Assembly: GCA_976226885.1 (NCBI GenBank)
Contig: OZ320316.1
Span: forward strand, 46,376,001 to 46,440,000
Reading direction: 5' to 3'
DNA: 64,000 nucleotides
DNA from: Iphione sp. A-MEVVRFRX5
Lineage: Eukaryota
Below the pieces are notes generated by a model. It saw nothing but the letters and a program-made list of their open reading frames with translations. It did no database searches and was not told where the DNA came from. Shown here piece after piece: positions 23,015-44,831 of the stretch. The translations under genes were made by a program, and so were the position numbers. Within the stretch, counting starts at the first letter, position 1, and every line of letters begins with the position of its first letter.

Positions 23015-24421
23015 CTAGTCTCGACTACTCGGCCCCTCATCCATGTATTCCTCCTCCCCGTCCCCCCAGATGTCTCCGAGGTGGAGGAGGCGCTGAGTTG
23101 GTGGAGCATAACCACAAATGTCGGCTAGGGTGGGGTGGAGTTTCTGATACTGTTCCCGTCTCTCCTGGGTAGCTTGGGCCCAGCTCTGGCCCACCGGATC
23201 GGGGTGCGTGCGTTGTCCCTGGATGAAGTCTTCGGCGGCCTCCACCGCTTTATTGTTCAGCTTGAGGAGCTGGTCCAGATTTCCCCACTCTTCCTCCCGG
23301 GGCACCTGCAGACCGGGGAGTATGAAGGCAGGGCGGCGACGTAAAGGCCTCATCAAGGGTCCCAGTAGATCGTCCTCTTGATTGCTCTCCGCCATGTGGA
23401 CAACCCAAGCCAGTGCTAGGGATGCTACAAAACGCTGCGCTGGGGACATACGATTCCAGGCATGCGGTGGCCAGGTGAGATGATCTGGCAGCTTCACCTG
23501 AGTGGACACGAGTGTATCTTGTAGAACGGCCACCTGGGGGTCGACAACGCCATCCAGGATCTCTCGTACATAATTGGCGCTGGGGGCGATGTGTGGCTCC
23601 GGTAGGAGATGACGGGAAAGACGAGACAAGTGCCCCTCTAGTAACAGCAGCGGGCGGGGAGCACTGCTCAGTGCAAGGCTGTCCACCCCAGTCCCATCGG
23701 GGTCGGGCCCTGACCGCCAGGGGGATAAGAGACTGGTGACTGGTGCTTCGAGTCCCAGCACCGGCTCAGCCGGTCCTGGAAGTGCGGATGGTCTCTCGGG
23801 CGACAGGACCGCAGCCGCCTGGCTTAGGAGTGGGTCCCTTGATCTGTGCGCCGGGCCGGCCTGTCGCTGAGCCCCCAAGCGGGCATCGTGTTCTACTGCT
23901 GGTCCACTCTCATGCTGAGGAGGGTCCGCTGGCTGATCCGGCATTGTCAGGCAGCGTCGCATGGGTGGCGGGGGCGGGGCTCGACAGGTGCTTTCTGCCA
24001 ACATCTTTTCTGCCTCCCCACGGCTCAAGGCCCACCCCATGTTGCGCAGTTCTCGAGCCCTCAGTATAATTTCAGTCAACTCATCATCCGGGGCCATTAC
24101 GTCTCCTCTTGGGGTTGCATCATATTGTCGATGGTAGGCCTTTTCCATGAGGCCAAAGTCAGCCACCCAGTGGTGGTAATGCCGGATGTGCTCAACCCAG
24201 GATTGTTTGTGGGAAAGTATACTGGGACAATAGAGGCACCTCATGTGCCTTCTCCTCTTACCTAGGTGATAATCGTCCACATGTCTCTTGAGAGAGTCCC
24301 CGGGGAAGAACGGCCGCGGCAGAGTGCACCTCTTGCATAAAACTATTCCCTCCGGCTTCTCCATCCCAGGTTTGACCACCCGGGGCAGCCGGCCAGGCTC
24401 GTCCACTGGTCGTCGGGGCAT
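23015..24421 (-). CDS. Intact 468-aa accessory ORF of the Gypsy-like element: two N-terminal C2H2 zinc fingers, Pro-rich linker, C-terminal domain of unknown family
   Basis: CKRC-x14-H-x4-H and CLYC-x12-H-x4-H; C-terminal WPPHAWNRMSPAQR..FILPG. ATG at 24421 lies 17 nt after a splice acceptor; the ORF-track start at 24553 is a TTG inside the predicted intron. Confidence 0.75.
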   Translation of the reverse strand: MPRRPVDEPGRLPRVVKPGMEKPEGIVLCKRCTLPRPFFPGDSLKRHVDDYHLGKRRRHMRCLYCPSILSHKQSWVEHIRHYHHWVADFGLMEKAYHRQYDATPRGDVMAPDDELTEIILRARELRNMGWALSRGEAEKMLAESTCRAPPPPPMRRCLTMPDQPADPPQHESGPAVEHDARLGAQRQAGPAHRSRDPLLSQAAAVLSPERPSALPGPAEPVLGLEAPVTSLLSPWRSGPDPDGTGVDSLALSSAPRPLLLLEGHLSRLSRHLLPEPHIAPSANYVREILDGVVDPQVAVLQDTLVSTQVKLPDHLTWPPHAWNRMSPAQRFVASLALAWVVHMAESNQEDDLLGPLMRPLRRRPAFILPGLQVPREEEWGNLDQLLKLNNKAVEAAEDFIQGQRTHPDPVGQSWAQATQERREQYQKLHPTLADICGYAPPTQRLLHLGDIWGDGEEEYMDEGPSSRD

Positions 24422-24438
24422 CGTTGCAGGCGGTGACA

Positions 24439-24576
24439 CTAACAGAAATATGAGGCGGGGCTGCTGCGATTTCCCCGCGTAGGCTAAGTCCTGGCGGTAC
24501 CGCCGACTTTTTGCAAGGTGCTTGTTGGCGGGATCGCCACGAGTAGCTCCCAAATGTTCAGATTATCACGGCTTAC
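24439..24576 (-). other. Predicted 138-nt 5'UTR intron of the ZnF ORF
   Basis: Donor GCAG|GTAAGC at 24576; acceptor cctcatatttctgttag|TGTCACC at 24439. Confidence 0.5.
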
Positions 24577-40790: not shown

Positions 40791-43700
40791 TCACTCCATG
40801 GGCACGTCGAGCTGAATGATGTTGGCCGATTTGAAGACGAAGCCCTCGATTGGTACTATACCATAGACAGGTACCGCATCGGGGGCGTAAGGGTCCACGA
40901 CGAACTTGATGGTTGTCTGTAAGTTCTGGGTGTTGAAGTCGGTCGCAATGAGTACTGCCCCAAAGAGGTCGGTCACCTGATCGCCATGACAACTGCTGTT
41001 GAAGGCGAAAATGGTGTTCTCCATTTTACACATAGCCAGAGTGGTATTGCCAATGGTGACTAACACTCCTTTCGTAAAAGGACCGTACAGTTCTCTATTG
41101 ATATTGTCTACTACGGTGTCTATGGTGTTTCCAGTGGTGAAGGGGGAGACTAAAGGCTGCACATCACGTGGGAACAGCCGGATGGACTCTACGGGGACGC
41201 CGTTGATGGAGGAGGCGGTGGCACTGCCTTCCAAGATGCAATTCTCCACAAGGAGGCACCACTGTCGTAATACGTGCTCGTCCTCCAGGTCGGGAGAGTA
41301 GGCCCGTGTGACCAGTTTGCTGAGGAAAGAGGCAGCCGCTAACTTGTTAGCCAAAGCAATGATGAAATTCTCGTGGGACTGGGTCTGCTGGTCGGCTGAC
41401 ACCACCCACGGAAATTTCCAAAGTCTCAGTGAGCGCGCCAGGACCATTCGGGGCACCTCCAGCTCTAGGAGTCCGACGGGGCGGACATCGTAGGTCGTCA
41501 GTTCCTCCTCCGTCTCGTCCGTACATAGTGTCCGGTCGACCCGGATATGCCGGTCAAGAATGTCCGGCATGACCTTTGCCCAGATGGCACGGTGGTCTTT
41601 GCGCAGGCGCCGCGCATGCGTCCTATAGACGTCGACCAGTTTGGGCACCAGACTGGCCGCCACCGCTGCCACTGTTACGAACACACCCGACCCTGTGAAT
41701 GCCCCGAGAGCGGACAGCGCCAGAAAAGTAAACACAACGAAAATGAAGACGAAGCTGAGGCGAATGAAGATTCTCCTTATTGACCTGCTCCAGCCACACT
41801 TCAGGTCGGCGCACACGTTGTAATAGAGTTCCTTGGAGACGTACTCTGTGTTGTCTCCATCCATGAACTTGACAGCGCCCAGGTTGTGCGTCTTGAGAAT
41901 TTGTATGGTGCCGTCCCGGAATACCTCGTCCGTGTCCTCGACGGCGGATATCCTCGGCGAGTTCTCGTCGATAAGCTTGAGGATGTCACAGTGCTCACTG
42001 TTGATGATGGCCAGTGTGTCGTTGAGGTAGTAGAGGAGGACGAGGATGAAGGCCACCACGGGTAGGGCGGTAGAAGCATGTAATACAGCCCCCAAACCGG
42101 TGAAAAATAGCACGTTGAGCAGGAACTCCGTCATGACAAAGACGGCCGTACAGTATCCAGCCAGCAGCGCCACGAAGGCCAGCCAGATGAGAGTGGAGCA
42201 GCCCCATTTACACAGGGTCGTCGGAGAGATGCATTCGCACGTCATTTCCGCCTGGGTCTCATCATCGTCGCGTTCACTGTCGTCGCGGCGCAGTTTGAAG
42301 AGCTTGTTATCGACCAGCGTCAGTCCAAAGCAGATGTTGAGCACGGGCACCTGCATGCAGACGCGGCCGATAAGGTGCGCCAACCGTCGAGCGCCCCAAG
42401 GGATCCAGCGAATCCTAAAGAGGTGCCGCTTGGTGCGGAAGTCGCCGTATGCTAACTTGCGGAGAATGTGTTTGTATCCGCGCGTCATTCGATCGTAGAG
42501 AAGATGCGGGTGTTCGTAGGGGCGGCGGTTGTCCATCTGGAGTAGACAGCGCTCTAGCGGGTTGTCCGGCCACGAAAGGAGAAGCACCGTATAGACGAAT
42601 GCTACGAATGAGAAGAGCATCCAGATGGTAAGGGCCGGATTATTCCGCGGCAGCAGCGCCCAGCCAACCAGGTTGGTGTTCAGAGCTAGGGGCCCGTAGT
42701 TTTCTAGGCCGGCAGCAAACTCGACGATAGCCGCGTATAGTGGCAGTCGCGGCGCGTAAAGAGCTGCGGCTGCGTAGAAGACGACGGGGTACACGATGGC
42801 GATGGCAAAGAAGCGCCAAAAGAAGCGCCAGCAGCGGCGGCAGCCAGACCCACGTCGGCAGGGTGCGGGTTGGTGCCGCCAGTCGGCCCAGGCATGGATG
42901 CAGCACCGTCCTTCGCCGTAGCAGTGAAAGACTAGGCGGAATAGGAAACGCGGCAGCGAGAAGGGCTTAGGATCGCTAAGATTGATGAGCTGGCGCGAGC
43001 TGATGCGGATGACATAGTTTCGCTGTCCTGTGATGCCATGTTTGAGAGAGGCCCGGAAGAACTTTGTTACATTGTCATACTTAAGCGTCATCTTAATCTT
43101 CATGACGACTATAGGGCTGAAGAGCGTGAAGATAACCGCGATGACGTCAATTACGGTGAGAACGCCGCTAACCTCTCGCCGGTACGATGTGTATATGCGG
43201 CAGAAGTGGTCGCCGCCTCGGAACTCGGCCGTATCGCAGCAGCGGTGGACGAAATGCGATACACTTCCAGTTTCTCCCTGCTGCTTCTCCTCCGCTCTCT
43301 CTTCATCCCGCCCGCCGCCATTCAGTTGATTGCTGTTGCTGCTGCTACCTCCATATTTGGTTGCTGGACGCCTCGCGGGCAACGTCTTGTTGACAACGCG
43401 GTGACATAGGAAGTCCCGGGCGTGACGTCGGCGTTCGACATGCGTCACGTTGAAGATAAGCAACTTTCGGACGGCATAGAGCCGACAGCCGGGCGACTGC
43501 CGCAGCAGACAGTCTGAAGGAACGGCGGCCAGTGACACATCAATATGGCGCCGTTGACCGTCCAGAATGTACAGTGACAGCACGTCGGCGTCCAGCGGAA
43601 GTCCCAATAACTTCCTACCCAGCCGTTCGGAAGCCCACACCCACTCCGAAGCCTTGAAGTTGTTGCCCATGTATGGGAAGTCGTCGAGGATCGATTCGTT

Positions 43701-44090
43701 CTCGCCAACGAAGCGTAGTCTGAAGGAGACGAGCGCCGTGTCGAGCTCCTCGATGTAATCCTGGAAGGTGGTCCGCACTTCGTGTAAGTTGAGCACACGC
43801 AAGACGCACGGCGTGGGGCAATCCGGTACGTACCGCTTCGGCCGGAAGTCGCCGTCTGCGGCAGCGGAAGTGGCGGTGTGGTCACGGTGATGCGTGGCCG
43901 CCCCGCCACGCCCGCCGCGCACCACCACACTACTGCCAGCGGCGTGCCCGTGCCTGTGGCGGCGAGGCGAGTCCTCCATCCAAGGCGCATGTTCAAAGGC
44001 GGAGAGACTTGAAACCACGCTGACCAAGACTAGAAGCAGCAATGGCGGCAGCGGCGACGGCGGCGCGGCAAGCAGCGTCGGCAGACGCAT
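40791..44090 (-). CDS. Intronless ~1099-aa multi-pass membrane protein: signal peptide, RPKR furin site, Cys-rich ectodomain, ~8 TM segments, C-terminal peptidase-C76-like domain
   Basis: 3.3-kb uninterrupted GC-rich ORF in AT-rich surroundings; hydrophobic leader MRLPTLL..LLLLVLVSVVSSLSA; several hydrophobic 19-23-mers; splice acceptor at 44261 upstream; AATAAA at ~40201 and ~39683 on the minus strand. Confidence 0.9.
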   Translation of the reverse strand: MRLPTLLAAPPSPLPPLLLLVLVSVVSSLSAFEHAPWMEDSPRRHRHGHAAGSSVVVRGGRGGAATHHRDHTATSAAADGDFRPKRYVPDCPTPCVLRVLNLHEVRTTFQDYIEELDTALVSFRLRFVGENESILDDFPYMGNNFKASEWVWASERLGRKLLGLPLDADVLSLYILDGQRRHIDVSLAAVPSDCLLRQSPGCRLYAVRKLLIFNVTHVERRRHARDFLCHRVVNKTLPARRPATKYGGSSSNSNQLNGGGRDEERAEEKQQGETGSVSHFVHRCCDTAEFRGGDHFCRIYTSYRREVSGVLTVIDVIAVIFTLFSPIVVMKIKMTLKYDNVTKFFRASLKHGITGQRNYVIRISSRQLINLSDPKPFSLPRFLFRLVFHCYGEGRCCIHAWADWRHQPAPCRRGSGCRRCWRFFWRFFAIAIVYPVVFYAAAALYAPRLPLYAAIVEFAAGLENYGPLALNTNLVGWALLPRNNPALTIWMLFSFVAFVYTVLLLSWPDNPLERCLLQMDNRRPYEHPHLLYDRMTRGYKHILRKLAYGDFRTKRHLFRIRWIPWGARRLAHLIGRVCMQVPVLNICFGLTLVDNKLFKLRRDDSERDDDETQAEMTCECISPTTLCKWGCSTLIWLAFVALLAGYCTAVFVMTEFLLNVLFFTGLGAVLHASTALPVVAFILVLLYYLNDTLAIINSEHCDILKLIDENSPRISAVEDTDEVFRDGTIQILKTHNLGAVKFMDGDNTEYVSKELYYNVCADLKCGWSRSIRRIFIRLSFVFIFVVFTFLALSALGAFTGSGVFVTVAAVAASLVPKLVDVYRTHARRLRKDHRAIWAKVMPDILDRHIRVDRTLCTDETEEELTTYDVRPVGLLELEVPRMVLARSLRLWKFPWVVSADQQTQSHENFIIALANKLAAASFLSKLVTRAYSPDLEDEHVLRQWCLLVENCILEGSATASSINGVPVESIRLFPRDVQPLVSPFTTGNTIDTVVDNINRELYGPFTKGVLVTIGNTTLAMCKMENTIFAFNSSCHGDQVTDLFGAVLIATDFNTQNLQTTIKFVVDPYAPDAVPVYGIVPIEGFVFKSANIIQLDVPME

Positions 44091-44136
44091 GCTCCCCACT
44101 CCCGGTAAGAAAGCGGCGGCGTCGATACCTGCCGCT

Positions 44137-44260
44137 TTAAGTCATGCCCCTCAGGGAAGCCCTCCAGATGGTGATGTCATGGCGTCTAGGTAGTGGTCGC
44201 TGACGTCAAGATGGGGCACTCCGGGCGGTAGAGAGTTGGCGGGCGGCACAGTGGCTCCAT
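44137..44260 (-). promoter_or_regulatory. 5' leader with three upstream ORFs
   Basis: uATGs at 44260 (24 aa, stop 44186), 44180 (9 aa, stop 44151) and 44145 (MT*), all terminating before the main ATG at 44090. Confidence 0.55.
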
Positions 44261-44831
44261 CTGCAACAGAGGATAGAAGCACCAAGGTTATGCAGAATGT
44301 CAAATAATGCAGAACCTGTGCAAAAAAGTCTTACATCTAATCTTTATTAAGGCGACGACACAAAGGAAGATGTACCTGATTAAATTTATTGAAACTTTCC
44401 CAACTGCCATTACTTCTCTACAATGTTGACTGACCCTCAGTGCTAACTCACACAACGAATTAACATGGTTGATGCTGTTTCGACTTCTGCACTCTATATC
44501 TTTATGACCTGGCAATAATATTGAAGGATCAATATAAGTTCGTCTGAGGTAAGGTTTTGTGCACTGTTTGGACTGGATGTTACATTTAGTAACGAAACAT
44601 TTAGAACGAAAAAAATGCTTAATCACATAATTATATTCGTGACATATCAAATAGAACACCATAGAGAAATGAAAGGATGAAACATAGGGAGAAACATGCA
44701 TTTTAGTGGCTAACGGGCGGCCAGACCGAAATGTGGATAGCGACAGGCGCGTATGTAAAACCGAAAGTGTTTGTAGTCTAGGCGGGGTGAACGCCTGTCT
44801 CTCCGTGCTGTACTGACAATAGTTCTGGCGA

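Follow-up and report, generated by a model that had tools for sequence, protein, structure and literature searches.

The C-Terminal Tail and the Layout of the Gene

The locus described here raises the question of what kind of domain ends a large membrane protein, whether that domain could still work as an enzyme and from where it was acquired. It lies in a window of 64,000 nucleotides from Iphione sp. A-MEVVRFRX5 (contig OZ320316.1), the window being the whole stretch of DNA that was analysed. The ORF at 40791–44141 (−) is a single open frame of 1116 codons from stop to stop (P0001), by which all residues are numbered, and its first Met is residue 18 at 44090 (−), giving an uninterrupted coding sequence at 40791–44090 (−) for a protein of 1099 aa. 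From the N- to the C-terminus, it comprises a signal peptide, an ectodomain, about seven predicted membrane helices and a tail of 200 aa. The signal peptide is predicted at about residues 18–49 (43995–44090, −) from a hydropathy peak at residues 28–53, and the N-termini of the relatives are likewise hydrophobic. The ectodomain, a confidently modelled alpha/beta region containing Cys (about residues 105–320; 43182–43829, −), is common to a wider animal family and carries N-glycosylation sequons at 148, 231 and 251, while hydropathy and the model place the multi-pass membrane region, with its predicted helices and large loops, at residues 322–843 (41613–43178, −). The tail domain proper covers residues 905–1107 (40821–41429, −).

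A first-pass annotation of the window had read 40830–41380 as a deubiquitinase (DUB) fold of the herpesviral type joined to a multi-pass membrane protein. The fusion is borne out, as the tail and the membrane region share one frame, and the interval was correctly placed at the 3′ end of that frame, in the last 200 aa or so, with the structural start slightly further upstream at about 41429 (residue 905). The motifs quoted for the domain, NKLAAASFL (41348), ENCILEG (41246), GVLVTIG (41069), FNSSCH (41003) and GAVLI (40961), do follow one another in this order in a single frame (−). Both the tail and the membrane core have a single match each in the 1.18-Gb host genome, and the Pfam scan of the frame 40791–44141 found no transposon domains.

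Upstream of the main Met, at 44091–44262 (−), a pyrimidine tract followed by AG at 44261–44262 was identified by eye as a plausible splice acceptor, which suggests a non-coding upstream exon. Three short ATG-to-stop frames of about 24, 9 and 2 codons were also seen by eye in front of the main Met, and translational control by them is possible. Among the holders listed in the sequencing-run search, no RNA runs were present. Elsewhere in the window, a GC-rich frame of 515 codons at 23015–24562 (−) has motifs resembling C2H2 zinc fingers close to its beginning (a weak match to PF12756, E 0.34) and is probably part of a mobile element.

Fold of the Tail

The AlphaFold2 model of the tail, built with 35 sequences, reached a pLDDT of 82 and a pTM of 0.77. 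The first six Foldseek matches in the PDB were all VTD or M48 chains (8ADC, 2J7Q, 8ADB and 8ADD), with E-values from 2.3e-5 to 4.6e-3. When the model was compared with 48,161 chains by VIA-align, the best match was the Helitron VTD 8ADD (Z 14.2, rmsd 3.5, 179 aligned residues), followed by cytomegalovirus M48, 2J7Q (Z 13.7, rmsd 3.5, 182 aligned), and 8ADB (Z 12.0, rmsd 4.0, 175 aligned), and a separate VIA-align comparison with 8ADC gave Z 12.9, rmsd 3.1 and 169 aligned residues. The next family in rank was that of the YopT-like protease AvrPphB, at Z 9.8. In the ESM Atlas, residues 900–1116 adjoin PF04843 clusters with a score of 0.95 and 198 shared features, on a calibration that was not made for partial proteins, and the top three clusters hold PF04843 in 73, 17 and 24% of their members. 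A search of BFVD with the tail model returned mostly herpesviral large tegument proteins at the top.

These matches point to a papain-like alpha-beta-alpha fold of the VTD/C76 type, as had been claimed, and the search for a C76 or papain-like structural match thus led to that very family in both Foldseek and VIA-align. The sequence searches gave no comparable signal: Pfam assigned no family to the tail at E ≤ 10, the best match of the PDB sequence search had an E-value of 0.69, and the PF04843 search of the host genome did not include the tail locus among its matches. As judged from the predicted model, the resemblance of the tail to VTD/C76 enzymes exceeds chance, though it is invisible to sequence tools. 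In BFVD, the tail model also matched small, uncharacterised proteins from the giant viruses Orpheovirus, Catovirus, Indivirus and Tupanvirus (231–258 aa), with E-values from 0.002 to 0.011, and these might possibly be unrecognised VTDs or YopT-like proteases.

Loss of the Catalytic Residues

The HMM matched 54 sequences; the residues of the active site were counted in the 42 whose domain is full-length, and the others are fragments. Not one of the 42 has a Cys at any column from 920 to 935, and single instances occur at 936, 938 and 941. The Asp-x-His motif is lost as well. Within FNSSCH (40986–41003, −), N1048 stands at the position of the Asp and S1050 at that of the His; position 1048 holds Asn in 39 domains, Ser in two and Thr in one, and His occupies position 1050 in 0/42, the motif there reading Asn-x-Ser/Ala. 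A conserved His lies two residues further on, H1052 (41/42), and it aligns with the catalytic His if an insertion of two residues is allowed. C1051 was found in 36/42 domains, with Gly, Ser, Tyr or Leu in the other six, the Helobdella protein among them, and S915 is invariant (42/42). The catalytic residues are substituted, as the first-pass annotation had stated.

The assignment of N1048 as the counterpart of the Asp is well supported by sequence comparison, being the best of 14 offsets and paired with Asp in 3/3 profile alignments. The position of the lost Cys is less sharply defined. The Gln pair Gln918-Gln919 (41385–41390, −) includes Q919, which is kept in 41/42 domains and lies 13 residues before N932, where the NKLAAASFL helix motif starts (41322–41348, −); the corresponding spacing in a Helentron VTD of the host genome is 14 (Q10…C24), so Q919 is likely the counterpart of the Gln that stands 13–14 residues before the catalytic Cys of VTDs. 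That Gln has an oxyanion-hole role in VTDs. The N932 register also fits the hydrophobic pattern downstream, and N932 is our preferred counterpart of the catalytic Cys among the candidates I927, N932 and L934. Asn at the nucleophile position, as earlier proposed, remains the favoured register, although I927 ties with N932 in the offset test (3.8 vs. 3.4) and L934, a choice made by eye and disfavoured by the offset test, was picked in 2/3 global profile alignments that scored no better than shuffles. In none of these three registers would a nucleophile be restored.

Because the catalytic Cys is missing, the tail is likely a disarmed enzyme, with a degenerate active site across the whole family. 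In the Helitron protein DrT1-VTD2, mutation of any one of the three triad residues abolishes activity (PMC9741609).

Relatives, Taxonomic Range and Selection

A query with the tail (residues 880–1116) retrieved 34 proteins from 1440 candidates at 50–96% identity, and a query with the membrane core retrieved 40 from 3802. Organism names are attached to only four of the 41 distinct close relatives, namely Paralvinella, Capitella, Lamellibrachia and Helobdella, which we take to be annelids, while ten further clusters that were checked contained no named member. The fusion thus appears to be an annelid gene, as all four named carriers are annelid, with that restriction on the number of names. A whole-protein, unfiltered search of 1.84 billion representatives gave 65 hits. 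Every hit to the tail belongs to this family, as a member or a fragment of one, while a set of weaker hits covers the ectodomain only. Three divergent partial relatives (P0053, P0057 and P0060), with a further decayed tail, insertions and no conserved His, are possibly lineage-specific paralogues. Of 20 metagenome loci, 17 were analysed, leaving out the partial L033, L036 and L037, and these consist of 12 full frames of 1032–1083 codons, four that run off the contig and L022, which is open for 435 codons only.

The dN/dS ratio was estimated for 16 chosen pairs, which are non-independent and include one identical pair. Nine pairs with a dS of 0.9–1.3 gave values from 0.004 to 0.04, and the other pairs were saturated. 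When the protein was divided into four regions, dN was lowest in the tail for 14 of the 15 informative pairs. These substitution rates indicate strong purifying selection on the tail, and the fused domain would be held more tightly by selection than other regions of the gene.

The Membrane Part and Its Wider Animal Family

The model of residues 90–899 has a pLDDT of 81 and a pTM of 0.83, from which, together with hydropathy, we infer about seven membrane helices. The ectodomain is predicted to lie outside and the tail in the cytosol; basic residues follow the last helix and the tail is therefore placed inside. An HMM built from 20 distant proteins matches the protein over residues 36–839 with an E-value of 3.9e-53 in a single comparison, and the named distant members include TRIADDRAFT_51889 of Trichoplax and LOC141904577 of the nemertean Tubulanus. 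Precomputed Pfam annotation on close relatives gives PF28478, an unnamed family on which the literature search found no paper and for which we know of no function. Members of this animal family have the same signal peptide, Cys-containing ectodomain and series of membrane helices; they differ in their ends, which are short or of low complexity. Among the distant sequences, 18 of 21 reach the last helix and continue for 38–193 aa, and the tail HMM found nothing better than E 0.65 in those extensions. The host genome itself holds three paralogues, at C10:89.41 Mb, C10:93.95 Mb and C15:43.60 Mb (L054–L056), all without the VTD tail. The low-complexity tails of these paralogues contain a common short hydrophobic motif that resembles VDLLITI.

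Structural searches with the membrane region and the ectodomain gave no usable match in the ESM Atlas. The 810-residue model, searched whole so that single domains may be missed, had no Foldseek match at E ≤ 0.001, whether to GPCRs or to known channels and transporters, and a best VIA-align Z of 6.7, to generic helical bundles.

A quick IQ-TREE analysis was made of the membrane part in 37 sequences, with the tails cut from the 18 that bear them. All 18 fell on one side of a branch with an SH-aLRT of 100, in a tree that carries a long-branch warning and in which this clustering is favoured, because the sequences were gathered by similarity to the query protein. The topology fits a single gain of the VTD tail, with the sampling favouring that pattern.

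Origin of the Tail

Thirteen matches to PF04843 were detected in the host genome. Almost all of them lie in frames about 2140–2170 codons long, and most of these copies keep an intact Gln…Cys and Asp-Ser-His. The one copy scanned in full is a Helentron frame of 2166 aa with VTD, Helitron_like_N, PIF1 and endonuclease domains. Helentron copies such as G000:C22:48131158-48137658 (L016 1159–7659) are 2136–2168 codons long and start with a VTD that has the full triad; some look near-identical, which suggests recent activity. VTDs are described in Helentrons, from which they have repeatedly been domesticated (PMC9741609; PMC11417382), and VTD-bearing Helentrons occur across animals (PMC9741609).

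The first-pass annotation had proposed capture from a virus or a large transposon. Of these, the Helitron-type transposon is the more likely source and the virus the poorer one, since the host genome carries Helentrons with intact VTDs, and a Helentron origin would be the most economical reading of the comparison. Direct comparison of sequences fails to demonstrate that origin: the profile alignment of the tail with four host-genome Helentron VTDs scored 31.9, no better than shuffles (26.3 ± 9.1), and hhalign gave E 0.38 for the same pairing. A search with the Helentron VTD alignment among proteins of 110–350 aa found no more VTDs. A real VTD-like fold whose source was instead viral, or a YopT-like protease that is not a DUB, is improbable in our judgement. 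Its appeal lies in the structural scores, which leave transposon and viral VTDs unseparated (Z 14.2 vs. 13.7), M48 nearly equalling the Helitron VTD, as well as in the distant BFVD matches in large DNA viruses and in the YopT-like proteases that come next in rank (Z 9.8). It is weakened by the presence of VTD-bearing Helentrons in the host genome, by the published model of repeated Helitron domestication and by the mammal and bird viruses from which herpesviral VTDs are reported (PMC9741609 for the latter two points).

Possible Function of the Tail

We consider it probable that the gene encodes an orphan, receptor-like membrane protein whose catalytically dead VTD tail serves as a cytosolic docking surface. 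A single acquisition of a VTD by an ancestral gene of the membrane family, with a Helentron as the most likely donor, would have been followed by the loss of catalysis. The surface of the tail would have been fixed by selection because a cytosolic partner would bind there; ubiquitin, a ubiquitin-like modifier (Ubl), the protein's own loops or a neighbouring subunit are candidates. The state of the ectodomain might thereby be coupled to trafficking or signalling.

Among the other readings, a tail that is a dedicated reader of ubiquitin or a Ubl, with its S1 site kept and ubiquitinated proteins or chains trapped uncut at the membrane, would be a special form of the docking surface and is somewhat unlikely. 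An acidic residue at position 993 (Asp in 28 and Glu in 11, 39/42 together) would agree with it; the distance of 21 residues from G972 to D993 is much like that of 20 between G55 and E75 of the Helentron VTD, and position 993 is, by eye, the counterpart of the D376/E377 pair of DrT1-VTD2, which holds the R-x-R tail of ubiquitin (PMC9741609). The very low dN of the tail is also compatible with a slowly evolving partner. However, counted by eye, the next helix of the model (I1007) follows D993 after no more than 14 residues, as against about 31 from E75 to I106 in the Helentron VTD; the binding-hairpin segment is, by eye, shortened by about 17 residues relative to that VTD, so the hairpin or loop seems largely missing. 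A model helix with its first residue at 925, seven positions ahead of N932, could moreover block the cleft. M48 and DrT1-VTD2 depend on the hairpin or loop for their activity, but the shortening is not decisive against a reader because Wc-VTD1 binds ubiquitin without that hairpin (PMC9741609). Complex prediction of the tail with host-genome ubiquitin returned a score of 0.00 that weighs neither way, from two runs in which the alignment was unused and the controls were not folded. A bolder form, in which a seven-pass receptor or channel family with a fold not in the PDB had, in an annelid branch, captured and killed a Helentron DUB that now acts as a ubiquitin- or Ubl-sensing gate, is unlikely; if true, it would place a membrane protein under the direct control of a domesticated pseudo-DUB.

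Least credible is a tail that still works as a hydrolase or transferase through a rewired site made of H1052, N1048 and a new nucleophile, either C1051 or S915, which we hold to be very improbable. The residues it calls for are well kept (H1052 in 41/42, N1048 in 39/42, Q919 in 41/42, S915 in 42/42 and C1051 in 36/42), but the invariance of single residues weighs little given the very high overall conservation, and the His is lost in P0053, P0057 and P0060. The rewired Cys-His site suggested by the first-pass annotation is unlikely in view of the replacement of C1051 in 6/42 full domains. Adjacent Cys and His residues are not known to form a papain-type dyad.

The tail is small and soluble, and the binding of dead VTDs is therefore directly testable. 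Its partner would be the first handle on a widespread, uncharacterised family of animal membrane proteins, and the model annelids Capitella and Helobdella have the gene.

Comparison with Known Systems

The literature searches, beyond whose reach lay most subscription journals and bioRxiv supplements, yielded no paper on this fusion of a VTD with a membrane protein, in agreement with the first-pass annotation, which knew of no description of it. The text and three supplementary files examined of PMC9741609 make no mention of annelids. Cnidarian VTD fusions are described there, and since the legend of Fig. 1b marks transmembrane regions in some of the proteins analysed, the locus is not the first in which a VTD stands next to membrane segments, as far as that legend goes (PMC9741609). 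It would show clearly how a domain that probably came from a transposon was joined to an old host membrane protein.

The first-pass annotation named herpesviral DUBs only, whereas the wider VTD family, including inactive insect members, was published in 2022. In Erven et al. 2022 (PMC9741609), the family (MEROPS C76, Pfam PF04843) takes in UL36, M48, BPLF1, the Helitron DrT1-VTD2 and Wc-VTD1 of Waddlia. The annelid tail shares with these proteins a predicted papain-like fold across the whole domain (Z 12–14) and an equal order of motifs. It differs from them in having neither the catalytic Cys nor Asp-x-His, in lying below Pfam detection with 8–16% identity to the solved chains, in its apparently shortened substrate-binding hairpin and in the multi-pass membrane protein attached to it. 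The VTD family would thereby gain a pseudo-enzyme that is strongly conserved and yet escapes profile searches.

A close parallel is found in the inactive insect VTDs (iVTDs), such as CG32436, CG4669 and CG14402 of Drosophila, which are described as host genes outside transposons that lack active-site residues and are thought to have been domesticated from Helitrons (PMC9741609). On the strength of its predicted model, the annelid tail is an iVTD as that group is defined, since it has the VTD fold, lacks the active-site residues and belongs to a host gene that is not part of a transposon. The insect iVTDs often form multi-copy arrays, stand close to Helitron VTDs and are testis-expressed (PMC9741609), whereas the annelid tail is one very divergent domain carried on a membrane protein.
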